DNA of 64,000 nucleotides, taken from NCBI GenBank assembly GCA_039586365.1, contig JBDHKN010000006.1, forward strand, positions 128,001 to 192,000, in the 5' to 3' direction. The stretch's first letter is position 1; each line of letters begins with the position of its first letter. A model generated the notes under the pieces. That model searched no databases. It was not told the DNA's origin and saw only the letters and a program-made list of their open reading frames with translations. Made by a program: the position numbers and the translations under genes. This stretch comes from Gemmatimonadota bacterium. GTDB lineage: Bacteria; Gemmatimonadota; Gemmatimonadetes; Gemmatimonadales; GWC2-71-9. Below are positions 37,956-52,955 of this stretch, in pieces.

Positions 37956-40277
37956 CTAGGTCTTCTGTGTCAGCCGGATCCTGTGCGTTCCTGCAGGTAG
38001 CCGGACATCCTGCGCTGGAACGTCTCGCTCCCGCCCGTCAATGGTGAGATGCAGCTGGCTGGCATGCAGATTCACCGCGAGGCTTATGGGTTCTGTAGAG
38101 AGCGTTTCCGCCGAGATCTGTCCAACGGCTACCTCCAAGTGGCGCAGTACGAGAGGCCCCGTGCTATACAACAAGCCCTTGCCGTCGACGTCGACACGGT
38201 AGCCCTCGGGTGACAGCAAGATGTCCCAACGTCGCCCGTTGAGTACGACGTTCTTGATCTTGCTAGATAGCGGTGGAGTCAGCGTCCCGACCCGAAGTCC
38301 GTCCCACGGCGTCGAGTCGATGAATTCCTCAATGCCGGTGAGCGCGAAGAGTGGTCCCCAGCTCTGGTAAGCCTGTCCTCCGCCTTCCCCGGTGCGGCTG
38401 TCGTAGTTCTCGCGGCAGGTCTGATAGTCGCGCCAACTCCGCAGGAATAGATCGACGCTTCGGCCTGCCAGCTCACCAGCCACGTCGTCGAACCGGTAGC
38501 GTCTCAGGCCTTGGTATGCCAGGTAGTTCGGTGGGGGCCAGATGGTACCGCGCCAGTATTGTTGGTCCGAGAACGCCGGATCGTCTCGGCTGATCGTTGG
38601 CAGAACGTAGCGTCCCCAAAACATCGTTTCGTCGAGCAAGGTCACGAGCATCCGCTCGGCACGCTCAGCGGTTGGGATTCCCGCCAGAAGTGGATAGAAA
38701 TGCGAGGCGGCTAGCCTATTGGAGCGGCGTCCGTCCCAAAACCGGTCGACATACATCCCCAGAGCGTCATCCCAAAGCTGTTCGTTGACTCTATCGCTGA
38801 GCCTGCATCTCATGTCTCGGTACAGCACTGCCTTCTGACTCAACCCCAACCGCTCGGCCATCAGTGCGAGGCATTCACAGTCAAGTGCCAGTAGGGAGTT
38901 CAGATCCACCGACTCGAGATTGAATGTCTCAGACTGCTCCATCCAGACAGCATCATCCCAATTGGGTAGGTCGTCTTGGCCCGATTCCCAGGCGGCTAGT
39001 TGGTGGTGACTTGCCTGGTTTTCCCAGGCGGCCGGTGAGTCGGTGAGCAGTCCCAGATCGCAGCCCCATTCGAACAACCCGTTGTCATTTCCGTCACGCC
39101 GCTTGCGTCCGTTCTTGCTTGCTCGCCACCACGCCGACCAGCGCTCGAGGTGGGGGAATGCTCTGTCCAACAGCGAGATGTCCCCAGTTCGTAGATAGCA
39201 TTTGAGAACGGCGAATGAGCCTATGGGGGGCTGTGATCGATCGGGTGTGCCGCTGTACCTACCACGCCAATTGGGGATGTTGCCGTTGTCGTACTGCGTC
39301 TCGAGCACGGCCAGTAGTGCATCCCGTGCCAATTCGGGACTCTCGACAGCAAGCTGGAGGGCGTTCAGAAAGCTGTCCCAGCAGAACACGGTCCAGTGAT
39401 CACGGCCGCCACCATGACGGGGGAAAATCCACCGCCGCCCGGCCGGCGCATATCGGCGGCCGGTCTCCGGTTTGATGGATACCATCCAGTGGAGATTGTT
39501 CGTGATCGACGAGGCGAGACCCTCCCAGTGTCCCTGCACGGCCACACGGCTCGACTCGTAGGCAGCGGCCGCCTGCTGCAACCGCCTGCTGACAGTGTCA
39601 CCCACCAGCAACCGCCTAGCCGCGTCGCGGGCCACTTCTAGTCGGTCCGCCATACATGCGGTAAAGATGATCCGATCACCAGGCGACACGGAAAACGGGA
39701 CGACTGCCTCAATCGCGGTTACATCAGGACCGCCATCGTGATCCCTGCGGTTGCCACCTGTGACTTGCTGCAGCACGAGCGCGATAGCGCACTCCCCGTC
39801 TGCCGTCAGACCAGAGATCTCGTGACACGCAATCTGCCGCTCCCGGTGTCCGACTGGTCTCTCCTGGCCAGCGCGTTCGTCGGACGCACCGTAGTTCGCG
39901 TGCCACACTCCCTCCCAGTCCCAGGGGAAGTAACCATGCATCGTTAGTGTGCCGGCAAACGAGACGCTGAGACCACCGACAGCACCGGCCCTGTCGATCC
40001 GGGACCACTCTACGGTTAGGCCGGCGTCACGGCCGGCCTTCGCTACGGTCGGACCGTCATGCTCGCTGCCGAATGGCAAGACAGCGTCAAAAGCAACGCG
40101 CGCATAGCTGCTGTCGGGAGCATGGGGACCGACCTCATGTACCAGGTGCATTAGGTCATTCCCATCGGCTCGTTCCCCATCTCGTTCCAGTGAGAATCGG
40201 ATGGCGAACCCGCGACCTGGCTGATCTGAGAACACCAATCCGTCCCAGGCTTCGGGGTCGTACGCGCCAACGAGCAC
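37956..40277 (-). CDS. (alpha/alpha)6 glycoside hydrolase, MGH1/GH63/trehalase-like
   Basis: FCWDSF, RSQPPI, ESGQDD, YWRGTIWPP, RENY. Confidence 0.85.
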   Translation of the reverse strand: MLVGAYDPEAWDGLVFSDQPGRGFAIRFSLERDGERADGNDLMHLVHEVGPHAPDSSYARVAFDAVLPFGSEHDGPTVAKAGRDAGLTVEWSRIDRAGAVGGLSVSFAGTLTMHGYFPWDWEGVWHANYGASDERAGQERPVGHRERQIACHEISGLTADGECAIALVLQQVTGGNRRDHDGGPDVTAIEAVVPFSVSPGDRIIFTACMADRLEVARDAARRLLVGDTVSRRLQQAAAAYESSRVAVQGHWEGLASSITNNLHWMVSIKPETGRRYAPAGRRWIFPRHGGGRDHWTVFCWDSFLNALQLAVESPELARDALLAVLETQYDNGNIPNWRGRYSGTPDRSQPPIGSFAVLKCYLRTGDISLLDRAFPHLERWSAWWRASKNGRKRRDGNDNGLFEWGCDLGLLTDSPAAWENQASHHQLAAWESGQDDLPNWDDAVWMEQSETFNLESVDLNSLLALDCECLALMAERLGLSQKAVLYRDMRCRLSDRVNEQLWDDALGMYVDRFWDGRRSNRLAASHFYPLLAGIPTAERAERMLVTLLDETMFWGRYVLPTISRDDPAFSDQQYWRGTIWPPPNYLAYQGLRRYRFDDVAGELAGRSVDLFLRSWRDYQTCRENYDSRTGEGGGQAYQSWGPLFALTGIEEFIDSTPWDGLRVGTLTPPLSSKIKNVVLNGRRWDILLSPEGYRVDVDGKGLLYSTGPLVLRHLEVAVGQISAETLSTEPISLAVNLHASQLHLTIDGRERDVPAQDVRLPAGTHRIRLTQKT

Positions 40278-40282
40278 GGGCT

Positions 40283-42877
40283 CTATGGTCGCAGGTCTTC
40301 TAGAAGGATGGTTATGGTGCGCCGTTGCTCGCCGGGTGGAAACGTGATTGTGAGACCATTTACGCCGTCCTGGTAATCAACGCTCGCCGGTCCGTGCCCC
40401 ACCCGCACGGCTTCGCCGTGGAGATCGATGCGATAGGAGTCGCCGGGATGTCCCTCGACCACCAGACTCCAGCCTCGAACTAACTCCTGAAAGTCGAGTA
40501 CTCTGATCCCCTGGCTCTCTTGCCCAGGGTCGAGCTTGGCTGTCGGCGGTTGCAGGATAAGTCCACCTTCCCAGGTCAACTCCAGTCGTGTCTGCCTGTC
40601 ACTGATTGGAATGGTTATCAGATGTTGTCCTTCGTGTCTGCCCTGGTGGGTCGACCCGCGACCGGCGCCGTGGGTAGGAGAAACTGTGAGACCTACGTCC
40701 CGCGCGCGCAACGGGATGGGAAGTACAAAATCCACATTCACTGGCGTCCCCGTAGCGCGAACGTCGATAGAGAGATAGCCCGGTCCCTGCCGCACGTCGG
40801 CGTCCAGCGAACTGGCTCCGATCTTGAGATTGTGGGCACTCATGCGCTGCCACGAAGGAGGCAACTGAGGGGCCAGCCTCGCCCGACCGCTTGGTGCGTC
40901 CGGATCCCACCCGAGCATTCCGGCGACCACGGGTGTGAGCAGCATCGACGTTGCGAAGAACTGTTGTGGTACGGCTGTGTCGAGAGGACGGTAGTACCGC
41001 CCGGACATCAATTCGGGATGGCGCCCTCGGGCCCAATCGAAAGTGGCTTGCTTCAGAGCGTCGATCAAAGGGAAGCCGGACCAGGACCGTCGGTAGTTGT
41101 ACTGTCCCCAGGTCACGAATCCGGTGACAAACGGCCACACAGAGCCACCGTTGTAGTGCACCGGATCATACAACGCACTGCCAGTGGATAGCATCCGCGC
41201 ACCCCAGTCGGCGCTGATGGAGTCACTCGCCAGTTTCATGAGGGTGAGTTCGGCCCGGGCCGGGTCCAGCAGGTTGAACGCTGCTGCCGTGGCGGGCCAC
41301 ACCGTGAGATTGTCGTTGGTGTCGCCGGATCGGAGTATGCCGAAGGCATGGTGGCCCTCCACATCTCGCCAGTAGTCTCGGTTGAGCACAGCTCTGGCCC
41401 TACGTCCCAACTCTTCAACCTCGCGCGCCAAGGCGGGATCGCCTCTCGCATGGGACAGCTCGGCCATCGCCTCCAACGCCTTGATCCATACGGCAGCGAG
41501 GTAGATGTCCTGATGTATGTCCTGGCCGAGTTCACCCACTTCGATCGCTCCTAGGTTGCCAGGGCCGTTCTCAATGATTGCGTCTCCGTCGGTGTCGCGC
41601 GAAAGGCACCATGCATATGCCTTGCTTACCGCGGGCCAGAGATCGTCGAGGAGTCTGCTGTCGCCAGTGGCTCGCCAGTAACGCCACAGGGCAACTAGCC
41701 AATGGGGCGTCGTATCGGCGTGGTAGTAAGTGTAGGGGAAATCGGTGAACCACGGGATTGTCCCGGCAGCTTGGGAAATCTCGTGCGGGATCTTGCCGTC
41801 TTCACGCTGGTAGTGGGCCAGGAACCGAAGCCCTTGTGACACTTGGGACCACATGCCCGTAGCACTCATGGCGAGCGTGTTGATCGCTGCATCTCCTCCG
41901 AAGAACCAGCCGAAGCCGGGCCTGCTGCTCTGGCCCGAGGGACCCCACCCCGCCACCAGGCCGCACCCGAGATCCGGATTGCACACTACGGCTTCGTCCA
42001 AGTTGATCTTGGACCACTCCAGCGCGAGGTCGAGGTCGTCGTCGGGAGTGTCGATGGATGTGGTATTGGCAAGCAGCGATCGTACGTGCTCCAGCCGCTC
42101 GCGGTAAAGAGCCGCGCCGTTCTCGAGCAACCGCTGATATATGCGGGCTACCGAGTCGCGCGGAGCTGTTGCAGCGGCGACAGCGATGGGGATGAACTCC
42201 GTTTCGCGGCGCGCGGAGTCGATCGGGATCACGAAGGTGTTGGGAGCATCCGGCAGCGCGTGAGCCGGATGGGTAGAAGCTGCCGTGGCCCAGGGTGATC
42301 CTATCAACGCATTTCGCTCACGGAGGCTCTCGGACAGGACGAAGGCCTTGGTATCGGAATCCCACAATGTGTACTGCCCGCCGAACGCGCCAGGCCAGGC
42401 GTACTGAAACACCGTCTTGAAACTGACAACCACATCCAGGGGACGGAACGTGCTCACGTCCAACAGCACCAAGAGTCCGGGCAGGTTGAGAGGCGCCAGA
42501 ATGTGCTGTCGCACCGTGAACGTTGCATGGCTGTAAACGATCGTCGTGATCTCAGGACGTATCACAACTGTTCGGGCGACGTCATTGCCTCGAATCGGTT
42601 CTACATAATCGGGAATCCGGAAGTCCAGTCTGAAATCGTCGGCCAGCTTGAACGGATGGACCCAGAGCTCCGCCTCTCCGGTCTCGCTACCGAGCCAGGC
42701 CGCTGCCCTGCCGAGGATTCCCAGGTATTGCCCACCTCTGGCGTCGCCCTTGAGTGCTAGGGGCGAAGGCACGACATCGAACTTGGAGACCGTCGGTGGA
42801 TGCTGGCCGGTGGCCATGCAGATTGGTATTGCCTGCAGTGTCGTGGCAACCAGCCACGCGCATCTGAGTGCGGTCAT
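40283..42877 (-). CDS. secreted (alpha/alpha)6 glycoside hydrolase, amylo-alpha-1,6-glucosidase-like
   Basis: Signal-like N-terminus; GWFFGGD, GKIPHE, HADTT, YNGGSVWP. Confidence 0.8.
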   Translation of the reverse strand: MTALRCAWLVATTLQAIPICMATGQHPPTVSKFDVVPSPLALKGDARGGQYLGILGRAAAWLGSETGEAELWVHPFKLADDFRLDFRIPDYVEPIRGNDVARTVVIRPEITTIVYSHATFTVRQHILAPLNLPGLLVLLDVSTFRPLDVVVSFKTVFQYAWPGAFGGQYTLWDSDTKAFVLSESLRERNALIGSPWATAASTHPAHALPDAPNTFVIPIDSARRETEFIPIAVAAATAPRDSVARIYQRLLENGAALYRERLEHVRSLLANTTSIDTPDDDLDLALEWSKINLDEAVVCNPDLGCGLVAGWGPSGQSSRPGFGWFFGGDAAINTLAMSATGMWSQVSQGLRFLAHYQREDGKIPHEISQAAGTIPWFTDFPYTYYHADTTPHWLVALWRYWRATGDSRLLDDLWPAVSKAYAWCLSRDTDGDAIIENGPGNLGAIEVGELGQDIHQDIYLAAVWIKALEAMAELSHARGDPALAREVEELGRRARAVLNRDYWRDVEGHHAFGILRSGDTNDNLTVWPATAAAFNLLDPARAELTLMKLASDSISADWGARMLSTGSALYDPVHYNGGSVWPFVTGFVTWGQYNYRRSWSGFPLIDALKQATFDWARGRHPELMSGRYYRPLDTAVPQQFFATSMLLTPVVAGMLGWDPDAPSGRARLAPQLPPSWQRMSAHNLKIGASSLDADVRQGPGYLSIDVRATGTPVNVDFVLPIPLRARDVGLTVSPTHGAGRGSTHQGRHEGQHLITIPISDRQTRLELTWEGGLILQPPTAKLDPGQESQGIRVLDFQELVRGWSLVVEGHPGDSYRIDLHGEAVRVGHGPASVDYQDGVNGLTITFPPGEQRRTITILLEDLRP

Positions 42878-42916
42878 TTTCGCTCTCCTGCAACCTCGAC
42901 GTGGGGTGCGGTGGTC

Positions 42917-43990
42917 TCAGACGCCGACTTCGATCAGTGCGTCGAGCTGCTCGACCACCTCGCCAATGATGGCGGCGCTTGGGGTTTCATTCTTGTTGAG
43001 TGCCCGGACCAGATCTGCGACGGCCGAGGGGTCTACAGCGATCAGTAGTCCACCCGATGTTTGGGCGTCGGCCAACAACAGCATATCCGATTCACTGACG
43101 CCGTCAGCCCAGTGCGTGACTTCATTCGCAGCAGCCAAGTTCGTCTTAGTGCCTCCCGGCACCGCGTTCTGGCTTATCAGTTCCCGCACCCGGTCGAAAG
43201 TCGGGACTGCGTCGGCGCTGAGTCGGGCGCACTGCCCACTTGCCTCCAGGAGGTTCTGCAGGTGGCCGAGCAGGCCGAACCCGGTAACGTCGGTGACCGC
43301 ATGTGCAGCGCTACCGATCTCCGCCACGGCCTGGGCAGCTCCAGCGTTCAAGGTGGACATCGCCGTCACTGCTGCAGCCATATCATCCTCGGCCATCAAA
43401 CCGTTCTTGAGTGCCGTACTCAGAATACCGGTGCCCAACGGCTTCGTGAGCACGAGAAAGTCACCGCTCCGTGCGCCTGAATTGGTGGTTACGCGGTTCG
43501 GGTGTACTTCCCCGAGGGCAACCATGCCGTACTTCGGTTCCGGGTCATCGATAGAATGCCCCCCCAACACAAACGCTCCAGCACGTTGTGCAGTCTCGAT
43601 CCCTCCTCGCAGTGTCTCTCCCAGCAAAGCCAGTACCTCTGCGTTGCGGGGCCATGCCACCAGATTGAGGGCGAGAAGTGGCTTAGCCCCCATCGCATAG
43701 AGATCGCTGAACGCGTTCGCAGCCGCGATCGACCCGAACGAATACGGGTCGTCGACAATAGGAGCGAAGAAGTCCACGCTGACTACTAGCGCGCGATCCT
43801 CAGACAGCAGATACACTGCTGCGTCATCACGCGTCGCGGCATCGACCAAGACTCGCGGATCTGCTACATGAGGCACGTGGAGCAGGACCTGCGCCAACTC
43901 AGCAGAGCTGAGCTTACAGGCTCAGCCAGCGCCGTGCGACAGAGTAGTCAACCGGATACGGGGGCGTTGATCGCGTGCGTCGCTGCTCAT
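42917..43990 (-). CDS. selD: selenide, water dikinase; selenoprotein (Sec at codon 23)
   Basis: ATG at 43990 reads MSSDARDQRPRIRLTTLSHGAG-UGA-ACKL in frame with the DDAAVY, DFF, GGHS, TDVTGFGLLGH, DAQTSGGLL body. Confidence 0.95.
43887..43921 (-). promoter_or_regulatory. candidate SECIS hairpin 3' of the selD UGA
   Basis: GCCUGU-AAGCUCAGC-UCU-GCUGAGUUG-GC-GCAGGU can fold as one long stem-loop starting right after UGA. Confidence 0.65.
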
Positions 43991-44269
43991 TTCCAATCGC
44001 GCATGTTGTGACGAAACCGTTGCTGAGTGAGTAGTAGATAAGGAGTCGTAGCGGCGCAACGCCTGTCACTCGTTGCCCACTCGATAACTGCCAAATCTAC
44101 AGTAATTCCTGGCCCGGGTGAGGCGTGGACCAGCCCGTGGTTGTGCAGCGTATCCGGACAATGAAGGACCCTTAAGAAAAAACACACCCGCGGTTGACCC
44201 ACGCCGTAGGGACATTGGTGATGAACCGGGATTGGGCTTGGGCCTGCGTCTGACTGAGGAGGGGTGAGA

Positions 44270-45862
44270 ATGGCTCGACCGCTGGTTGTGCTGGTTGGTG
44301 CGGAGATCGAGGAGAACCTCTCGATCCGTTACTTGGCTGCGGTCCTCGAGGCGGGCGGCTTCACCGGCATGATCATTCGCTTCAACGAGTCAATGGAGAG
44401 CGATGCCGTGGTACGGGACATCTGCGCTGCGGGCCCGCTGGTCGTGGGTATCTCGATTCCGTTCCAGGCGCGGGCCCGCGAGCTGCTTGGGCTCGCTTCG
44501 CACCTCCGACTGGCCGGCTATCGAGGTCACATAAGTGTGGGTGGCCACTTCGCCACCTTTGAGTACGCCGGCATTCTGCAGGACTACTGGGCTGTCGACT
44601 CAGTGGTAAGGCACGAGGGCGAGCACACGTTCGCCGAGGTGTGCAAGGCCGTTCGGGACGGCATCGCTGTGGGAGGTATCCCTGGCACCATCGCTCGAGA
44701 CAACGGCGAGGTCACGGTGGCTCCGAAGCGCGCACTCGGGCCGCTGGACGATCTGCCGTTCCCCCAACGGCCGGCAACGCCCAACATTGTTCTGGGCATA
44801 TCGTGCGCACCGATCATGGCAAGCAGAGGCTGCTACGCCAACTGCACGTTCTGCTGCATCCATGCCTACACGGACAATGCTGCGGGTCCCCGGTACAGGA
44901 AGAGATCACCGGAAAACATAGTCCGTGAGATGTTGCAGGAATACCGTGAGCGGGGAGTGCGCCTGTTCGTGTTTCACGACGACAACTTCCTGGTTCCGTC
45001 CGTGGCGAAGAACCTGCAACGTTGCAGCGAGCTGGCTGCTCTGCTCGCGAGACAAGAGTTGGATGGGATCGGGTTGGTGATGAAATGTCGCCCGCAGGAA
45101 GTGGATAGACAGCTGTTCGAGTCGTTGCAGTCCATGGGTGTGATTCGTGTGTATGTGGGGATTGAGACCAACTCGGACGAGGGTGTGGTGAGTCTCAACC
45201 GAGGCATCTCCCCGAGCCAGAATCGCAGATCGCTGGAAATCCTGCGGGGGCTTGGGATCTACTGTTCGTTCAATGTGTTGATCTTCGACCCGGAGGCGAC
45301 ACTGCGGGGCATCCAGCAGAACTTGGAATTCATGGAGCAATTCGCTGACGTCCCCTTCAACTTCTGCCGCGCCGAGGTCTACGCTGGTACGCCACTCAAG
45401 CAGATGCTGACCGCGCAGGGGAGGTTGCTGGGCGACTACTTGGCGTGGGGTTACGAGATGCGTGATCCGCGGGTGGAGCTGCTGTTCCGGATCGTCTCAA
45501 CTGCGTTTGCCCAGCGCAACTTCAAGCCGGATGGACTCGCCAATCTCAACATGGGCATTCGGTTCGACAACGAAGTGCTATCTCACTTCCACTCTCGTGC
45601 TCGGGATCGGATCAGAGATGAGCAACTGGTAGCTCTATCTCGCGAGATTGGGCTGGACAGCGTGGCTCACTTCCGCAGAGCGCTGCAATTCGTGGCTGAG
45701 ACGGATCAACCGGAAAGCGATGCCGTGAAGCGGTTCACTGTGCAGCTGGCCGGCAGCCTGGCGCGGAGTGAGCTACGGTTTCTGCCACGCATCAAATCCG
45801 CCAGACGCGAGATGGAAAGTTGTGTGCCGCGCGAGCATGCTGGCCTGTCAGGGGCACTTTGA
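44270..45862 (+). CDS. B12-binding domain radical SAM protein (class B methyltransferase-like)
   Basis: ENLSIRYLAA, VGGHFAT, RHEGE cobalamin domain; SRGCYANCTFC; DDNF; GIE; AGGAGG RBS. Confidence 0.92.
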   Translation: MARPLVVLVGAEIEENLSIRYLAAVLEAGGFTGMIIRFNESMESDAVVRDICAAGPLVVGISIPFQARARELLGLASHLRLAGYRGHISVGGHFATFEYAGILQDYWAVDSVVRHEGEHTFAEVCKAVRDGIAVGGIPGTIARDNGEVTVAPKRALGPLDDLPFPQRPATPNIVLGISCAPIMASRGCYANCTFCCIHAYTDNAAGPRYRKRSPENIVREMLQEYRERGVRLFVFHDDNFLVPSVAKNLQRCSELAALLARQELDGIGLVMKCRPQEVDRQLFESLQSMGVIRVYVGIETNSDEGVVSLNRGISPSQNRRSLEILRGLGIYCSFNVLIFDPEATLRGIQQNLEFMEQFADVPFNFCRAEVYAGTPLKQMLTAQGRLLGDYLAWGYEMRDPRVELLFRIVSTAFAQRNFKPDGLANLNMGIRFDNEVLSHFHSRARDRIRDEQLVALSREIGLDSVAHFRRALQFVAETDQPESDAVKRFTVQLAGSLARSELRFLPRIKSARREMESCVPREHAGLSGAL

Positions 45863-45934
45863 AGTGGGCCCACAACGGTCTGTACCTAACATCCCGACGT
45901 TGTGATCACAGTTCCTTAGGACAGGGGGTCGATT

Positions 45935-46663
45935 GTGGGAATCAAGAGCAAGGCAAAGAAGGCAGCTGCTGCGGGGGTCACGGTGGCAACGAGTGGCCTG
46001 AGTAGCTGTAATGACAATGGCGTGGTTGACCCGCCCCCACCGCCACTCGAGTGCAGTGATGTAGACCAGGGGCAATCGCTCGAAGCGACGGCCGAGCGGG
46101 TTGACCGTGTCCTGTCCGTGACAGTGCGACACGCACTAGGGGCTGATGCGTACTGGTTCGATGTCCGAGTCACGAACCCGCAGGGAGCAGTGATCGTGTC
46201 GGTGGTTACGTCGCCGAACGGCCGGCCGGATGACGTGTTGGTGACGCTCTTGCTGCAGTCCGACACAACCAGCACGGGGTCGTTCACCGTGGAAGGTACC
46301 TTGGCCGGCTACTCGAACCAGCATTGTGCCGTGTTGCGCACGTTCACATTCACCGTCGACGGGCAGAACGTCGTTGTCAGTCAGCGGAAGGGCCACTCGC
46401 TTCCTTTGGTGGCCCGTGAGAGGGCCTGGATTGTCATGGTTGGTGGTGACCAACGCGAGGTGGAGCTGGAGGCCAGGACAGAATACCGCGATCCGCACGG
46501 CGTCAGTTGGTCTGTCACTGGTGGTTCCCTGGTCATCAATCCGAATCAGAAGGCCCGCTGGTTGTTGCCGGAAGAAGCTGGCCTTTACCAGGTGCAGGTG
46601 GTTGTCGACTATGGGCAGAATGGCTTGGCGGTCGACACGATGGCCTTCGAGGTGTTGGGTTAA
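45935..46663 (+). CDS. hypothetical lipoprotein-like protein with VVDPPPPP motif and beta-rich domains
   Basis: Lys-rich N-terminus, GLSSC lipobox-like site, Pro run, two predicted beta-sandwich regions. Confidence 0.75.
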   Translation: MGIKSKAKKAAAAGVTVATSGLSSCNDNGVVDPPPPPLECSDVDQGQSLEATAERVDRVLSVTVRHALGADAYWFDVRVTNPQGAVIVSVVTSPNGRPDDVLVTLLLQSDTTSTGSFTVEGTLAGYSNQHCAVLRTFTFTVDGQNVVVSQRKGHSLPLVARERAWIVMVGGDQREVELEARTEYRDPHGVSWSVTGGSLVINPNQKARWLLPEEAGLYQVQVVVDYGQNGLAVDTMAFEVLG

Positions 46664-46670
46664 GCTCGGC

Positions 46671-47897
46671 TCAGCCTCTCCCTCCTGCCAACCGAGCAGC
46701 GTCCGGTGAATGCTTGAGCCGCCACATCGCCCAGATGCCGAAAGCCGGGCCTGGGGCCAACAACGCGAATGCCCAGCGCCAACCGGCCATGTCCAGTGCA
46801 CCGGGGATCAGACGGATCGAGATCAGGGTCAGTAGGAATCCCATGGCTGTCTGGGTTGTGAGCTGGGTCCCCATGTATTCACGGTCTGATAACTCACTGA
46901 CGCTGCTGCTGAACTGAGCCGAGTCGGCAACAACCGCGAAGCCCCAGATCAAGGCGATTGCCGTTACGATCAGAGGAGATCGGCCGAAGCAGAAGCCAAT
47001 GCTGAGGGCGCACACCCCGCTCACCCACATGCTCACTATGGTGGTTCGGCAACGCCCCCACCGGTCGGCAATGTGCCCGGCCAACAGACTTCCTGCTCCA
47101 CCTGCCGCAATAGCCGCGAAAGCGGCAATCGAGGCCCACTTGGTCACCGTGTCCTGATGTAGTGACTTGCCGAAGCTGGAAGCACTGAAAGACGCTGCCA
47201 GGAAGAGCGGGATCCAGGTCCACATCGCATACAGTTCCCACATGTGGCCCAGGTATCCGAAGTTGGTCAGCCGCAGCGGCCGGAGGTGCAGCGACCGGCC
47301 CATGTGACGCCAGTGAAACGGGGCGGTGGGAGCGGCATATGGCCCGAGTTTTCCAGCGAACCACCCGCTGATCCCGCCAGCAACCGCAAGGCCCGACACT
47401 GCATAGATGACCGGCTGCCACGCGCCGATGCCCCCCAAGGCCTTGACCAGGTGCGGCGATGCGCTGCCTACTGTTAGGGCACCCACCAGCATGCCGATCG
47501 CCAAGCCTCGATCGTGCTTGGTCCAAGTGGCCATGATCTTCATACCCACTGGGTATACAGCTGCCAGCGCCATGCCTGTCCCGAACCGCAACAGGACTGC
47601 CACCATGAAACCGCTGTTGAGCGCTGGAATGAGCGCGTTGAGCAGCGCCCCCAGCAGCGCACCCGTCGCGAAGACCTTTCGGGGAGACCACAGGTCGGGG
47701 ATGTTGAGCAGGGCGCTGAGCAGTGCTCCCAGGACGAAGCCGAGCTGGACTGACATGGTCAACCACGCCGCCTGTCCACCTGAGACATCCCAGTGATCCA
47801 TCAGAGCCGGCACGACAGCAGTAGCGGAGAACCACAGGCTCATGGCCAGGAGTTCGCCCAGTGAGAGCAGGATCAGGTGGGGCCATTTGCCCGCCAC
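46671..47897 (-). CDS. MFS transporter
   Basis: MSLWFSATAV, AVYPVGMK, GYLGHMWELYAMW, ADSAQFS; about 12 TM helices. Confidence 0.9.
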   Translation of the reverse strand: MAGKWPHLILLSLGELLAMSLWFSATAVVPALMDHWDVSGGQAAWLTMSVQLGFVLGALLSALLNIPDLWSPRKVFATGALLGALLNALIPALNSGFMVAVLLRFGTGMALAAVYPVGMKIMATWTKHDRGLAIGMLVGALTVGSASPHLVKALGGIGAWQPVIYAVSGLAVAGGISGWFAGKLGPYAAPTAPFHWRHMGRSLHLRPLRLTNFGYLGHMWELYAMWTWIPLFLAASFSASSFGKSLHQDTVTKWASIAAFAAIAAGGAGSLLAGHIADRWGRCRTTIVSMWVSGVCALSIGFCFGRSPLIVTAIALIWGFAVVADSAQFSSSVSELSDREYMGTQLTTQTAMGFLLTLISIRLIPGALDMAGWRWAFALLAPGPAFGIWAMWRLKHSPDAARLAGGRG

Positions 47898-48730
47898 TAT
47901 CTGAATCCTGTCAACTGAATTCCCTGCACGAAGTACCGCTGTGTCAGGAAGAACAGTATCACTATGGGTATCACCGCTGTCACTGCAGCCGCCATTTGAT
48001 ACGGCCAGTTCATCACGAAAGTACCGTGGAACGAAGCAATCCCTACCTCCACGGTGCGCATCGTCATGGACCGGGTGACAACCAGGGGCCACAGCAGGTT
48101 CTTCCAAGCATCGATGAAGGCGAAGAGACCGATCGTTGCCAGCGCCGGCTTGGCGAGTGGCAGCGAGATCGTCCAGAATACGCGCCACGAACCCGCTCCG
48201 TCGATCCGTGCGGCATCCTCGAGTTCTCTGGGAACCGAGCGAAAATACTGCCGCATCAGGAAGATTCCCCAGACAGACACCAGCTCGGTGCTGATCAGTC
48301 CGCCATAAGTGTCTATCCAGCCGAGTGCGTCCACCAACAGGAATCTGGGAATGAGCACCACGACTGCCGGGACCATCATGGTTGACAGGTAGAGCATGAA
48401 CAGTCGGTCACGCCCTCGGAAGTCGAACTTCGCGAATGCGTAGCCGGCCGTTGCAGCCGTGAACAGCTGCCCCACGACGACTGCGGACGCGAACACGAAC
48501 GAATTGAGGAAATAGCGACCGAACGGACGTGCCGTCAGGGCGCCAGCGTAGTTGTCCCAACGCAGCGATTCCGGCACTAGTCGAGGCGGGAAACGGAACA
48601 CCTCGAGTTCGTCCATGAAGGAGGTGGCTATCATCCAGAGAAATGGGAGCAGCATCGTTGCAGCCAGAAGAACGGCGAGCCCCCAGGCTGCAGATTCTCG
48701 CCACGGTCGCGAGCGCCGCAAGCGCCCCAT
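47897..48730 (-). CDS. carbohydrate ABC transporter permease (MalG-like)
   Basis: ELEDAARIDGAG EAA loop; QRYFVQGI. Confidence 0.93.
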   Translation of the reverse strand: MGRLRRSRPWRESAAWGLAVLLAATMLLPFLWMIATSFMDELEVFRFPPRLVPESLRWDNYAGALTARPFGRYFLNSFVFASAVVVGQLFTAATAGYAFAKFDFRGRDRLFMLYLSTMMVPAVVVLIPRFLLVDALGWIDTYGGLISTELVSVWGIFLMRQYFRSVPRELEDAARIDGAGSWRVFWTISLPLAKPALATIGLFAFIDAWKNLLWPLVVTRSMTMRTVEVGIASFHGTFVMNWPYQMAAAVTAVIPIVILFFLTQRYFVQGIQLTGFR

Positions 48731-50547
48731 TACCGGCTCACCTTGAGCCGTTGCTCCAGCGTGCGGAACTGGAGCCACGTTACCACGAAGATGATCGCGA
48801 ACAGCACCCAACTCATTGCGGCGGCGTTGCCGAACCGGAAGAACTCCCACGCCTCCTGATAAATGTGAAAGACTGCCACATCAGTGGCGTGCAGCGGTCC
48901 CCCCTCAGTCATCACGTACACGGCGCCAAAGACCTGGAATGACCCGATCACCGATGTTATCAGCACGAAGAACAGTGTGTGGCGCAGACCCGGGATTGTG
49001 ACGTGAAAGAACCGCTGCAATGGGCCGGCCCCGTCTATGCGGGCGGCGTCATATAACTCAGTGGGAATCGTGGCTAATCCTGCCTGAAACAATATCATCT
49101 GGTACCCCACCACCATCCACACAGCCATGATCATAATCGACAGGAGAGCGGTATTGGGTGAACTCAGCCAGCCTACCGCGGGTAGTCCGAGCACCGAGAG
49201 CAGCCAATTGATGAGACCGTAGTCGTCATGCAGCATCCATTGCCACACCATCGCAATGGCCACCAGACTCGTGATCGTCGGCAGAAAGAGCATTGCACGC
49301 AGGAAGACGACGCCGGCAACCTTGCGGCGCACCACCAACGCGATCCCGAGGGCGAGCGCCATCGATGCGGGCACGTGGAAAGTGAATACTGCGGTGTTGC
49401 GGATCGCGTTCCAGAACATGCCATCGCCCAGCAGGCTGACGTAGTTGGCCAACCCAATGAACGGCCGGGCAGCGTCAATCAAGCTCCATCTGTGGAGGCT
49501 GAGCCACGCCGCAAACGCGAGCGGTCCGATTGTGAAGATCAGCAAATGAACCAGCGAGGGGGCTAGGAACGACCAGGCAACGAGATTACTGCGGAAAGCC
49601 CGAGGTCGCTCGGCAAGACCGGCCAGTGACAGCAGAGGCGCGGCCAGGCTGAGCCCGATGAGGGCGACGGCTACCATGGTCGTGGTTGGTCCACCGGCGT
49701 GCTCGTAGGGCAGGCCTACCAGACGCACCGCCCCGACGTCAGCGACCGCATACCCCACGCCGTCAACCGTAATACGACCATCCGAAGGGCGGTCCGTCAT
49801 TGCCAGTGCCCGTGCCACCGGAGCTGATAACAAGGGGGATTCAACGTCTCCGGCCGAGCCACGGAGGACGAAAGCAAGGCCCGTCAACTGAGCAACTCCT
49901 CCTGGCCGCCCCGTCAGATCTCCCAGGTCCGGTACCAAGCGGAGGGCGTGGGCTGCGACTGCGACGCGGTGATCCGTTGCCTCCTGCAGCCTTGCAGTGG
50001 CCCAATTCCGGGCTAGCCAAAGCGACGACGTGAGGGAGACGATTACAGTGGTGGCCACGAGAAAACCGATGACGGCCGCTGCCCGTCGCTCGCGGATCAC
50101 GGGGAGCTTGACCCACAAGAGGAGACCCAGGAGCAATGAGCCCAGCAAGGTGAACAGCGCAGCTGAGTTCGCGACGGGTATTCGGGCCTCCGATCCACGG
50201 CGGGCGCTGAGGAGGAGGGTGCCGACCTGGTACCAGGAGTCGGCGTCATACAACGCCGCCCGAGCGGCGAGCCCGTCTCCTGCTTGATACACCACTGACT
50301 CATCGAGCCACGGATCGACTTCGTCGCTGAGGCGCCATCGGTCAGGAAACACTCCATCCAATAGCGCCGGTTGTTGGGTCTCCCGTAGTGTTCCAACTGC
50401 GATCCTAGCTTCCGCGGCCAGCAGGTCGCGCTCCGCCGCTGTCACAGCAGACAGTGCGGTATAGAGAGCGGCCGCGCAGGCTATCGCCAGTAACGCGAAG
50501 GCGGCGCCGCCGAGGAATAGGCGGCGTTTCTGCGCAACCGGAGTCAC
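48730..50547 (-). CDS. carbohydrate ABC permease (MalF/UgpA-like) with long N-terminal extension
   Basis: C-terminal FIGLANY, ELYDAARIDGAG, GSFQVF; about 320 extra N-terminal residues. Confidence 0.88.
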   Translation of the reverse strand: MTPVAQKRRLFLGGAAFALLAIACAAALYTALSAVTAAERDLLAAEARIAVGTLRETQQPALLDGVFPDRWRLSDEVDPWLDESVVYQAGDGLAARAALYDADSWYQVGTLLLSARRGSEARIPVANSAALFTLLGSLLLGLLLWVKLPVIRERRAAAVIGFLVATTVIVSLTSSLWLARNWATARLQEATDHRVAVAAHALRLVPDLGDLTGRPGGVAQLTGLAFVLRGSAGDVESPLLSAPVARALAMTDRPSDGRITVDGVGYAVADVGAVRLVGLPYEHAGGPTTTMVAVALIGLSLAAPLLSLAGLAERPRAFRSNLVAWSFLAPSLVHLLIFTIGPLAFAAWLSLHRWSLIDAARPFIGLANYVSLLGDGMFWNAIRNTAVFTFHVPASMALALGIALVVRRKVAGVVFLRAMLFLPTITSLVAIAMVWQWMLHDDYGLINWLLSVLGLPAVGWLSSPNTALLSIMIMAVWMVVGYQMILFQAGLATIPTELYDAARIDGAGPLQRFFHVTIPGLRHTLFFVLITSVIGSFQVFGAVYVMTEGGPLHATDVAVFHIYQEAWEFFRFGNAAAMSWVLFAIIFVVTWLQFRTLEQRLKVSR

Positions 50548-51842
50548 CGTGCTCTCACTCTGTCTATCTGTCGGGCGATCTCGGAGGCAGCTTGCTGGAG
50601 ATCATCTCCCCGCAACAGGTGGCGATCCATGATGTCGAAAGAGAGTTCTTCGATCTCGTAGAAGTCCACGACCACCGCACCCCAGGGAGGGCGACTACCG
50701 GCTACCTGCGTTAGGAATGCCTGCTCTAGTCCCAGCGTATCTTGCTGGGCCAGTTCCAGCGCCACTGTTCGGAATGCCGGGATCTCGAGGTGGTTCTCCC
50801 CACGAATGCGCTGCGCTTCCTCGCCAGCCAAGAAAGCCGCTAGTTCCACTGCCAGTCTCTTGCGACTCACGTTGGTGGGAACAGCCCAACCCGATGTGTA
50901 CACTACGTTCTGGGGGGCCGCACCCTGACGGTGGGGAATCGGTGCGATCCCGACACGGATGTCACCTCTCGCGTTGTAGTGCAGCAGCCGCGGTACCAAC
51001 CAGTGTCCGGAGTGGAGCATCGCCTGCGCTCCTACATAGAAGCGGCCCACCCGCATGGGGTCACCGCCCCGGAGGAACTGGACAGGCGCCGCCTTCCACT
51101 CGGTCACCAGGGACGTCAAGAACTCGAATGTCTCAACGGTAGCTGGGGAGTCCAGGTACCCAGCCGTTGTGTTTCCCTGTGGATCCAGGATGTCGCCCCC
51201 CGCTGACCAGACCCATGGTATCCACTCGAATAGCCGGCGCGGGAAATCGATGGCGTAAGTGTCGGTCTCACCGTCGCCGTCCAGATCCCGTGTGACGGAG
51301 CGCGCCGTCTCCAGGAATTGATCCCAGGTCCACTGATCGGCAGGGGGTGGTGGCACGTCCAGTTCGTCAAACAGGGCTCCATTGTAGAAGATGACCATGG
51401 GCGTGAAGCCCTTGGGAAATGCATGGAGCTGCTGAGACTTCGTAAAGATTCTCAGGACTTCAGGGAACACCATGGCCGGATCGTAATCCACCCTGTCTAG
51501 GTATGGTGCCAAGTCGAGCACCAATCCGCGCTCTACGAATGCGGGTATGTCCGGCGCGTCGAGCAGAAAGACATCGGGCGGAGTCCCCGAGGCTATCTCC
51601 GTCGCCAGCTTCTCACCGTAGTTCGTGACGATTGACTCGACGGTGACCTCAACTCCAGGATTCTGCTGGGAGAATCGGTCTGCGATCTGCTGCTCCGCCA
51701 TCACTTCGAGATCGGTTGCCCAATTGAGCACCCGCAGTGTTATGCGGCGGGAATCCGGTCCATCAGCAGTGCAGTTGAGCAGCAAGGGCACGAGGTGCAG
51801 CAGGGCCAGGCGTCTGGTCTTGAACAGGTCGCGGCGGCACAT
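50544..51842 (-). CDS. sugar ABC transporter substrate-binding lipoprotein
   Basis: LLLNC lipobox; GTPPDVF, FYNGALF, WTWDQF. Confidence 0.9.
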   Translation of the reverse strand: MCRRDLFKTRRLALLHLVPLLLNCTADGPDSRRITLRVLNWATDLEVMAEQQIADRFSQQNPGVEVTVESIVTNYGEKLATEIASGTPPDVFLLDAPDIPAFVERGLVLDLAPYLDRVDYDPAMVFPEVLRIFTKSQQLHAFPKGFTPMVIFYNGALFDELDVPPPPADQWTWDQFLETARSVTRDLDGDGETDTYAIDFPRRLFEWIPWVWSAGGDILDPQGNTTAGYLDSPATVETFEFLTSLVTEWKAAPVQFLRGGDPMRVGRFYVGAQAMLHSGHWLVPRLLHYNARGDIRVGIAPIPHRQGAAPQNVVYTSGWAVPTNVSRKRLAVELAAFLAGEEAQRIRGENHLEIPAFRTVALELAQQDTLGLEQAFLTQVAGSRPPWGAVVVDFYEIEELSFDIMDRHLLRGDDLQQAASEIARQIDRVRAR

Positions 51843-52955
51843 CTACAGCCGGTCCCAGCGCTGGTCGGGAATCAGGCGTTTCCGGTCTGGGCCTGCAAAC
51901 AAATGCGCCCGGGTCCTGTCTACTCTGACCCCGACTTGATCCCCCGCGGTGGCGCCGTATTCGGGGTCCACCCTGGTCACCCAGTGGTCATTCCCAGGGC
52001 CTGCGAGATGCACCAGCGATTCGTTGCCCAGCGGCTCCAGGCGGACTATCTCGGCAGTGAAGTCGACTTCATGCACCGTTGTGGTCAGATAGAGCGCCTC
52101 GGGCCGCACCCCGAGTATGGCGGGACCCGAGTGCATATAGGTTGGCAGGTCAAGTGACAGGCCGTTGCCTTGGAACACCGAGCCGATCTTCGCCGGCAGT
52201 AACTCACCCTCAGTCGTATTGATTGGTGGTGAGCCGATGAAGGTCGCCACGAAGAGATTGGTCGGCGACCGGTACACCTCGAGCGGTGTCGCGAACTGCT
52301 GTAGGCTACCGCCCTTCATGACAGCGATGCGCTGTCCCAGAGTCATGGCTTCCACCTGATCGTGCGTGACGAATATCATGGTGATGCCGAGTCTCCGGTG
52401 CAGCTGAGCGATCTCGGCGCGCATCTCCAACCTGAGTCTCGCGTCGAGGTTTGACAGGGGTTCGTCGAACAGAAAGACACTCGGCTCGCGCACCAGCGCT
52501 CGACCCAGGGCGACTCGCTGTCGCTGCCCTCCGGAGAGCTGGCCCGGACGGCGGTCGAGTAGGGGCTCGAGGTCCAGCACTGCGGCTGCGTGTATCACCT
52601 TTTCTGCAACCTCCGCCCGGGGGAGCCCGCGCATTTTGAGCCCGAACCCGAGATTCTGACGCACGGTCATATGCGGATAGAGTGCGTAGTTCTGAAACAC
52701 CATTGCTATGTCACGGTCCGCCGGCTCGACGTCGTTTACCGCTCGTGGGCCGATCCGGATCTCCCCTGCGCTCGGTTCTTCCAGTCCGGCAATGGTCCGC
52801 AGCACCGTGGTCTTGCCGCACCCCGACGGTCCCAACAGGACTACTAGTTCTCCAGGAGCGATCTCCAGGTCGAACGCGCGCACTGCCGGTACGTCGTCAA
52901 ACCACTTCTCAACCCCGCAGAGCGTGACACCGGCTGTCTTCGGCTGGTTACTCAT
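51843..52955 (-). CDS. sugar ABC transporter ATP-binding protein (UgpC/MalK-like)
   Basis: [41 protein letters not shown] domain. Confidence 0.95.
   Translation of the reverse strand: MSNQPKTAGVTLCGVEKWFDDVPAVRAFDLEIAPGELVVLLGPSGCGKTTVLRTIAGLEEPSAGEIRIGPRAVNDVEPADRDIAMVFQNYALYPHMTVRQNLGFGLKMRGLPRAEVAEKVIHAAAVLDLEPLLDRRPGQLSGGQRQRVALGRALVREPSVFLFDEPLSNLDARLRLEMRAEIAQLHRRLGITMIFVTHDQVEAMTLGQRIAVMKGGSLQQFATPLEVYRSPTNLFVATFIGSPPINTTEGELLPAKIGSVFQGNGLSLDLPTYMHSGPAILGVRPEALYLTTTVHEVDFTAEIVRLEPLGNESLVHLAGPGNDHWVTRVDPEYGATAGDQVGVRVDRTRAHLFAGPDRKRLIPDQRWDRL

Follow-up and report, generated by a model that had tools for sequence, protein, structure and literature searches.

The cytoplasmic radical S-adenosylmethionine (SAM) enzymes anSME and AtsB modify a short motif (C/S-x-P-x-R) in the N-terminal region of exported sulfatases; they are SPASM-type enzymes that lack a B12 domain. 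Other radical SAM enzymes, designated class B, combine a B12-binding domain with the radical SAM core. Among these, MgmA/QCMT and Mmp10 act on a residue of a full-size protein, methyl-coenzyme M reductase, while the C-methyltransferases of the PoyC type (TIGR03975, rSAM_ocin_1) methylate unactivated carbons of ribosomal peptides that are encoded alongside them. The class-B proline methylases of the bottromycin pathway carry out proline beta-methylation, and OxsB, which functions in oxetanocin biosynthesis, has a nucleotide as its substrate. Here we describe a two-gene cassette, found in a 64,000-nucleotide stretch of a Gemmatimonadota genome (contig JBDHKN010000006.1, positions 128,001 to 192,000; hereafter the window), in which a gene for a predicted class-B radical SAM enzyme (gene 1) is followed by a gene for a predicted lipoprotein (gene 2). 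From sequence comparisons, we propose that, prior to export and lipidation of the lipoprotein, gene 1 modifies a V-D-P-P-P-P-P motif of gene 2 in the cytoplasm, with C-methylation as the most likely reaction. We assign this proposal a probability of about 0.62.

The order of events that we propose has a described counterpart in the DAG-RiPPs, which belong to the RiPPs, peptides that are made on the ribosome and modified after translation. In these systems, for example DybA/DybH, cytoplasmic modification of the precursors is carried out by MNIO enzymes that lack signal peptides, and lipoprotein signals are present on several of the precursors (PMC13056109, PNAS 2026). As described in the main text of that paper, the signal-bearing precursors are lipidated afterwards by the general lipoprotein pathway; MNIO substrates larger than 30 kDa exist, and the large ones are secreted proteins, not lipoproteins (PMC13056109). 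The cassette resembles the DAG-RiPPs as presented there in having a precursor with a lipobox, an adjacent enzyme without a signal peptide and a proposed sequence of modification, export and lipidation. It differs in that the enzyme is a B12 radical SAM protein, whereas theirs is an MNIO (DUF692) enzyme, and in that the target is an N-proximal Asp-Pro motif rather than a C-terminal motif containing Cys; the cassette, moreover, is known from its genes alone. The authors regard their mining approach as applicable to other enzyme families. Beyond MNIOs, autoinducing peptides are all that the main text mentions, and it contains none of the terms radical SAM, rSAM, B12 and cobalamin (PMC13056109).

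Our own literature search, which reached few subscription journals, yielded no description of a B12 radical SAM enzyme that is either the partner of, or fused to, proteins of the gene 2 kind. The original prediction, made from the letters of the window, stated that no characterised system with this layout was known. For a B12 radical SAM pair this stands, but lipoprotein-signal precursors that are modified in the cytoplasm are described for MNIO enzymes in the main text of the DAG-RiPP paper (PMC13056109). What is likely new, as judged from the genes, is the combination of radical SAM protein or RiPP modification with the lipoprotein pathway; among the Pfam and NCBIfam models, the solved relatives and the papers that we found, none covers the pair.

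Gene 2 has a Lys-rich N terminus, an Ala-rich hydrophobic stretch and the lipobox L22-S23-S24-C25, followed by the motif V31-D32-P33-P34-P35-P36-P37-L38-E39-C40 and two predicted beta-sandwich domains. This bears out the earlier description of a Cys after the signal, a DPPPPP segment and beta-rich domains. A large protein collection contained 83 relatives of 157-274 residues, all of them unnamed or annotated as hypothetical, from which we picked 40 across 37-85% identity for an alignment (A1). D32, P33, P35 and C40 are invariant in this alignment, while V31, P36, P37, L38, C131 and the signal-peptide residues G21, L22 and C25 are kept in at least 90% of the sequences. C40 and C131 may form a disulfide. 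Residues 31-40 are the most conserved 10-residue window of the protein, with a mean top-residue frequency of 0.92, where the protein as a whole averages 0.56. With 0.62, the signal-peptide region is better conserved than the first mature domain (0.47), which fits a possible second role for the signal peptide as a recognition handle.

Across all 83 homologs, the motif pattern was present in 81; the two misses were a fragment truncated at its N terminus and a protein with H-G-D-P-P-P-P-P. The lipobox pattern was found in 79, and 78 had lipobox and motif in the right order, with identical spacing in 65 of the 78. Within the 5.44-Mb genome that contains the window, V-[DE]-P-[PLA]-P-P-P occurs in a single open reading frame (ORF) of at least 80 residues, which is gene 2, and we detected no gene 2 paralog there. 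Elsewhere, tandem paralogs of gene 2 at two loci (L016 and L019) retain the motif. In the AlphaFold2 model of gene 2 (pLDDT 82.6, with residues 1-27 below 50), the motif precedes domain 1, in a flexible stretch whose confidence is low to medium. Foldseek returned only generic tandem immunoglobulin (Ig)-like matches with TM-scores of about 0.2-0.28. Gene 2 matched no family in Pfam or NCBIfam and did not reach the PKD gathering score; Atlas leads to PKD for domain 2 scored 0.87-0.89, under the 0.9 mark.

Enzyme and lipoprotein occur together. When we scanned species-representative genomes with a gene 2 profile, we obtained 16 loci, and the enzyme gene was directly upstream on the same strand in 15. 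The remaining locus is a 26-residue fragment at a contig end, and the linkage therefore holds for 15 of 15 evaluable loci. The hosts are mostly Gemmatimonadota metagenome-assembled genomes (MAGs), together with one MAG each from the Acidobacteriota, Vicinamibacteria and Myxococcales. For the reverse comparison, we scanned metagenomes with an enzyme profile and took the best 80 of 257 confirmed loci. Among the 33 with at least 50% identity to gene 1, tblastn found gene 2 downstream in 29, and two more (L033 and L054) have an N-terminal gene 2 fragment with the motif at the contig end, giving 31 of 31 evaluable loci; in the last two, the contig ends 7 and 144 bp past the enzyme.

Genome sampling gave a similar picture. 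In 401 sampled genomes of the phylum, the gene 2 profile matched eight and the enzyme, at E <= 1e-60, also matched eight; seven genomes had both, at adjacent coordinates, with enzyme orthologs of 58-63% identity and a full-length gene 2. In one further genome of the 401, G211, the enzyme is only 32% identical, and tblastn found neither type of partner (a second type is described below). Among 40 relatives of the window's genome, just two contained a true enzyme ortholog, G020 with 61% identity and G001 with 67% and internal stops, and gene 2 lies directly downstream in both. The cassette is rare (about 2% of sampled genomes) and is patchily distributed, as one unit, over three families and at least three phyla. 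Clustering of the ORFs in the 16 neighborhoods revealed no third gene common to more than two loci, although this clustering was crude and was noisy because of shadow ORFs in the high-GC DNA. At L049 (5081-6802, plus strand), and also at L050, the enzyme gene and the gene 2 homolog are separated by an unrelated 573-residue lipoprotein that has many D-x-D-G-D-G-V (thrombospondin-type-3-like) repeats.

The other 47 metagenome loci, with less than 50% identity to gene 1, fall into separate enzyme clades. We placed them in a tree by a quick IQ-TREE run of 90 rows, after dropping 15 of 104 loci whose aligned piece was short or broken. In this tree, the type of partner tracks the enzyme clade. Sister to the window's clade (support 97) are the L060 and L061 enzymes (44% identity), whose partner is a lipoprotein with a Gly-rich linker of 75-85 residues, then G-D-P-A-C-F-P-I-Y-C and then similar beta domains; the L060 partner scores 17.4 bits against Pfam PKD, under the gathering score of 23.5. 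A small clade consists of L062, L085 and L103. The L085 partner, a lipoprotein, has a single beta domain preceded by five copies of [TMI]-V-V-D-P-x-P-x-D, the L062 partner has three VVDP-x-P-x-D copies in a reading frame that is apparently broken, and L103 has no room for a partner downstream.

The largest of these groups, which we call the EPAH clade, comprises 42 loci with support 100 (within L063-L108; for example, L081 5365-6075 and L094 5188-6822). Its partner is a protein of about 235 residues (400-544 in some cases) without a signal peptide, to which Pfam, NCBIfam and Atlas gave no family name. Invariant positions form E-P-x-H motifs at approximately residues 14, 130 and 164, and each of 21 aligned partners contains 3-13 copies of E-P-[AVPS]-[HQ], compared to 0.05 in shuffled sequences. 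The partner was clear at 37 of the 42 loci; three others have at most 482 bp of room and two were unclear. The EPAH proteins are probably another substrate family.

A second source of repeated motifs was proteins in which the enzyme is fused to a substrate-like tail. A phmmer search with the enzyme gave 25590 matches at E <= 0.001; at the stricter E <= 1e-30 there were 1063 representative clusters, other B12 radical SAM enzymes among them. Among the best 150 representatives, 94 are 620-1053 residues long, with the enzyme at the N terminus (residues ~3-520). We viewed 12 of the sequences. In six (P0087, P0091, P0093, P0109, P0124 and P0090), the enzyme is followed by a hydrophobic segment that often ends in a lipobox-like Cys, then by repeats of [VT]-V-D-P-x-P-x-P, V-V-D-P-x-P-x-D or P-P-D-P-L-P and often by a beta domain; P0087, P0093, P0109 and P0124 have both the lipobox-like segment and repeated VDP-type motifs. 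P0101 and P0105 instead contain repeated E-M-A-P. Using patterns of our own, we recognized at least two motifs in 31 of the 94 long representatives (13 VDP-type, 12 D-P-x-P and 6 E-M-A-P).

To relate split and fused forms, we built a FastTree phylogeny of 127 rows, made up of 23 picked locus rows and 104 of the 150 representatives, the 46 fragmentary ones having been dropped; its support values are local, and we assigned the labels ourselves. The window's unfused clade (20 rows, support 97) is nested among fused clades, and the split L085 is sister to the fused P0109 (support 89). Against P0093 and P0109, the A1 profile gave only weak matches, in the beta domain at the C terminus (E 0.0037 and 0.0052, with a probability under 10%), which does not establish that the fused tails are homologous to gene 2. 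A search starting from gene 2 found no related protein longer than 424 residues at E <= 0.001, but it was a weak search with a saturated word filter, and the fused forms came to light via the enzyme. In 10 of 12 aligned enzyme orthologs (L014, L015, L016, L019, L021, L022, L024, L025, L026 and L028), the C terminus is extended by a tail of ~35 residues ending in [ST]-E-x-L-P-x-P. This ending resembles the E-M-A-P-x-P at the C termini of the fused P0101, P0105, P0117 and P0156, and the tail could be a pseudo-substrate or a self-modified tail.

Gene 1 is, by sequence and by modeled fold, a class-B radical SAM enzyme: the B12 domain, the CxxxCxxC core and the predicted structure all agree. A Pfam scan (E <= 0.01) found only the B12-binding and Radical_SAM domains, with no SPASM domain and no leader-binding RRE domain. 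C188, C192 and C195 are invariant in all 12 sequences of the ortholog alignment (A2) and in all 40 of a broader one (A4). The AlphaFold2 model, based on a 40-sequence alignment (pLDDT 94.5, pTM 0.92), combines a Rossmann domain with a radical SAM barrel and a C-terminal domain made entirely of helices (residues 400-412, 414-418, 423-440, 447-477, 483-517 and 521-524), with no invariant Cys beyond those of CxxxCxxC. These results confirm the cobalamin-binding domain, the CxxxCxxC motif and the long helical C-terminal extension that had been noticed in the original prediction. An Atlas match of the C-terminal domain to DUF4070 (0.92) is a lead only. The enzyme has no signal peptide, and its N terminus forms the first strand of the Rossmann domain.

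Comparison with solved class-B enzymes revealed a shared fold and remote sequences. OxsB (PDB 5ul2/5ul3/5ul4) was the best match both by profile (E 7.3e-16, the others being weaker) and by Foldseek (E 1.3e-21, TM 0.71), but it is only 15% identical, has an extra N-terminal domain and lacks a protein partner of the gene 2 kind. TsrM (E 1.6e-18, TM 0.58-0.60), MgmA (5e-18), AprD4 (1.6e-15), CysS (2.9e-15) and TokK (2.2e-14) followed. MgmA/QCMT (PDB 9ccb), a top structural match (TM 0.57 normalised to the query and 0.71 to the target), is distant in sequence, with 54.2 bits against the TIGR04014 cut-off of 360 and a profile E of 1e-4 for 9ccb; it and Mmp10 also differ from gene 1 in substrate, in host organisms and in having no export step. 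Against TIGR03975, gene 1 scored 70 bits where 281.85 are needed, and the substrate we propose is a folded lipoprotein of 242 residues rather than a short peptide, with an enzyme in which the Pfam scan detected no RRE. SPASM-type maturases such as anSME/AtsB and QhpD have a SPASM domain with auxiliary clusters; gene 1 gave no SPASM hit in the Pfam scan. None of the 23 NCBIfam models that matched at E <= 0.01 (the equivalogs HpnR, BchE, ApyD, HpnJ, rSAM_ocin_1, PhpK, QCMT and 16 others) reached its curated cut-off, the best being HpnR with 93.5 bits versus 650.

We consider it likely that gene 1 and gene 2 are enzyme and substrate, because the linkage is strict in both directions, the motif is the best-conserved part of the lipoprotein, motifs are multicopy in sister-clade partners, split and fused forms interconvert and no other gene is conserved nearby. 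The original prediction raised the question of whether ORFs beside or fused to homologs of the enzyme keep a C-x(n)-[VI]DPxPPP motif and diverge elsewhere, and that is the pattern described above. Its suggestion that the enzyme modifies the motif after the Cys gains from the linkage, the motif conservation and the fused repeats, while methylation follows only from the class of the enzyme. We favor C-methylation because class-B enzymes carry it out on peptides and proteins more often than any other reaction, but as an assignment for gene 1 it is tentative and, in our estimate, falls somewhat short of even odds.

A possible course of events is as follows. The two genes would be co-transcribed, as they are separated by a gap of 72 bp without a terminator-like site. 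While the N-terminal part of the preprotein is unfolded, the enzyme would bind to it, perhaps with the unusually conserved signal peptide included. As the enzyme lacks a signal peptide and needs an Fe-S cluster, it would have to act in the cytoplasm, before Sec export and lipidation. A [4Fe-4S] cluster on C188, C192 and C195 would cleave SAM, the resulting 5'-deoxyadenosyl radical would remove a hydrogen from a residue of the Asp-Pro pair or one beside it and, following the class-B paradigm, methyl-cobalamin would hand over its methyl group. Sec would then export the modified chain, and Lgt and LspA, both of which are encoded in the window's genome, would lipidate and cleave it at C25. The mature product would be an envelope lipoprotein consisting of a short spacer, the modified motif and two Ig-like domains. 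A co-fold of the enzyme (using A2) with gene 2 residues 1-60 (using A1) gave a score of 0.01, which bears neither way on binding.

The best-surviving alternative, which we judge rather unlikely, retains the same enzyme and substrate but replaces methylation with epimerisation, a hydroxylation-type reaction, desaturation, a C-C or C-S cross-link (for example, D32 to C40) or a backbone rearrangement at Asp-Pro. The invariance of both D32 and C40 would suit such chemistry, no NCBIfam methylase model comes near its cut-off, and neither OxsB, the best structural match, nor the high-ranking AprD4 is known as a methylase. However, C-methylases make up most of the characterised class-B enzymes with peptide or protein substrates, including MgmA/QCMT among our matches as well as Mmp10 and PoyC. 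Partners in the EPAH clade have no conserved Cys near their motifs, so a Cys cross-link is not the family-wide reaction.

We think it quite improbable that the enzyme acts instead on a small molecule or lipid, with the lipoprotein serving as a co-functioning binder, carrier or receptor of the product. The two Ig-like domains could bind a ligand, and lipid and cofactor enzymes are among the top NCBIfam similarities (HpnR 93.5, BchE 80.3, HpnJ 71.8 and the ladderane-lipid enzyme 51.2 bits), but these scores are far under the cut-offs of 360-650 bits and no other pathway gene is conserved nearby. A small-molecule substrate would also leave unexplained why enzymes are fused to a signal-like segment with repeated short motifs and why acidic-Pro motifs recur in unrelated partners. 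Finally, the conserved Pro-rich stretch after the lipobox could be just a structural tether or lipoprotein-sorting signal, with linkage arising from another dependence such as an enzyme acting elsewhere on the protein or on the signal peptide, as its flexible setting between lipid anchor and domain 1, a possible C40-C131 disulfide and the L060/L061 motif at the domain start, far from the lipobox, would allow; but tethers are usually poorly conserved, this motif is the best-conserved window and its type recurs 3-13 times in sister-clade partners that include cytoplasmic proteins without signal peptides, making this reading very improbable.

Several observations weigh against our proposal that gene 1 modifies the gene 2 motif. 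The evidence for modification is all comparative and comes, for this cassette, from genes alone. In the L060 and L061 partners, the motif is reduced to D-P and a Cys, 75-85 residues past the lipobox, and therefore neither the poly-Pro run nor proximity to the lipid anchor is essential. What all clades have in common is no more than an acidic residue with a Pro at +1 or +3 after it, which is a short motif, and the motif link between clades is partly our own reading. Our patterns were not matched twice in 63 of the 94 long fused representatives; several of these have a single E-M-x-x-P or E-A-A-P-P-P, often at the extreme C terminus. The extra ortholog tail is absent from gene 1 itself (window 45800-45862) and from L018. 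The complete genome G304 contains an orphan, shortened gene-2-like ORF (L109 4314-4958, minus strand; G304:C1) and no enzyme ortholog at E <= 1e-60. This ORF covers profile positions 13-159; it lacks the second beta domain but has V-D-P-P-P-P-L-V-C and a lipobox-like Cys. In G001 (L003 and L013, on one contig, G001:C86) and in L017, an intact gene 2 follows an enzyme gene that contains stops or frame breaks, which may reflect a pseudogene or indel errors of MAG assembly; L013 and L017 are two of the 15 linked loci from the gene 2 scan. Last, as class-B enzymes are not all methylases, methylation is a guess: OxsB is not known as one, and AprD4, which is not known to use cobalamin, carries out non-methylase chemistry.

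A broader proposal, which we regard as an even bet, is that the cassette represents the split form within a large, unstudied B12 radical SAM family that would introduce a novel protein modification at acidic-Pro motifs (D-P-P-P, E-P-A-H and E-M-A-P) of dedicated protein substrates. The lipoprotein branch would be modified before export, signal peptidase II would free fused lipoproteins from their own enzyme, and the products would form a new class of lipid-anchored modified proteins.

The features of the cassette are collected in Table 1. The ATG start of gene 1 is preceded by a Shine-Dalgarno (SD)-like GAGGAGG and aligns with Met1 of all 11 orthologs in A2, and the GTG start of gene 2 aligns with the near-invariant Met1 of its family in A1.

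Table 1. Coordinates in the window of the two genes and their predicted features
Feature	Position	Strand	Basis or remark
Gene 1, class-B (B12-binding domain) radical SAM enzyme	44270..45862	+	530 aa from ATG (532 aa from GTG at 44264)
B12-binding (Rossmann) domain of gene 1	44288..44641	+	Pfam PF02310, 53.6 bits (cut-off 32.1), residues 9-126 of 532-aa ORF
Radical SAM core of gene 1	44822..45289	+	Pfam PF04055, 63 bits (cut-off 29.5), residues 187-342 of 532-aa ORF
CxxxCxxC, [4Fe-4S] cluster motif, C188/C192/C195 (ATG numbering)	44831..44854	+	Invariant in alignments
Helical C-terminal domain of gene 1, residues 400-524	45467..45841	+	AlphaFold2 model
Spacer between gene 1 and gene 2, 72 bp	45863..45934	+	SD-like AGGGGG 6 nt before gene 2 GTG
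Gene 2, 242-aa lipoprotein, predicted substrate	45935..46663	+	ORF list, GTG start
Lipoprotein signal peptide with lipobox L22-S23-S24-C25	45935..46009	+	G21, L22, C25 near-invariant (A1)
V31-C40 motif, predicted target/recognition motif	46025..46054	+	Conservation
Ig-like beta-sandwich domain 1, residues 49-150	46079..46384	+	AlphaFold2 model, Foldseek
Ig/PKD-like beta-sandwich domain 2, residues 164-240	46424..46654	+	AlphaFold2 model, Foldseek

As the original prediction stated, this plus-strand pair sits within a minus-strand region; in the ORF list, the flanking long ORFs (37956-43897 and 46671-53069) are all on the minus strand. A promoter and terminator scan of 43800-46900 found no promoter-like site, no terminator-like site between the two genes and one terminator-like site, on the minus strand, in the upstream intergenic region. 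Genes related to carbohydrates surround the cassette. Upstream are two large MGH1/GH63-like glycoside hydrolases (37956-42877, minus strand) and downstream is a sugar ATP-binding cassette (ABC)-transporter set (47897-53069, minus strand) that comprises two permeases together with a binding protein and an ATPase-like ORF, and in which one permease ORF has a long N-terminal extension, as well as a minus-strand gene for a major facilitator superfamily (MFS) transporter. None of these carbohydrate and transport neighbors is kept beside the cassette in other genomes. The divergent upstream gene encodes SelD (TIGR00476, 333.7 bits; 42917-43990, minus strand). It contains an in-frame TGA at 43922-43924 within G-A-G-U-A-C-K, which indicates a selenocysteine-containing SelD; ORF lists shorten the gene to a TTG start (43897). 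We rejected a functional link between SelD and the cassette, as SelD is not conserved beside it elsewhere. A cobalamin riboswitch in the genome (82.1 bits) speaks for the use of B12 by the organism, though not by the gene 1 enzyme.

If our proposal is correct, the cassette would represent a new post-translational modification on bacterial envelope lipoproteins, introduced by a radical SAM clade that has no studied member, and the logic of modifying a protein in the cytoplasm and then passing it to the lipoprotein pathway would extend from MNIO to radical SAM enzymes. The two-gene unit is small and suited to direct co-expression, and the family supplies natural multi-site substrates (5-13 motif copies) and enzyme-substrate fusions that would be handy for defining the chemistry.

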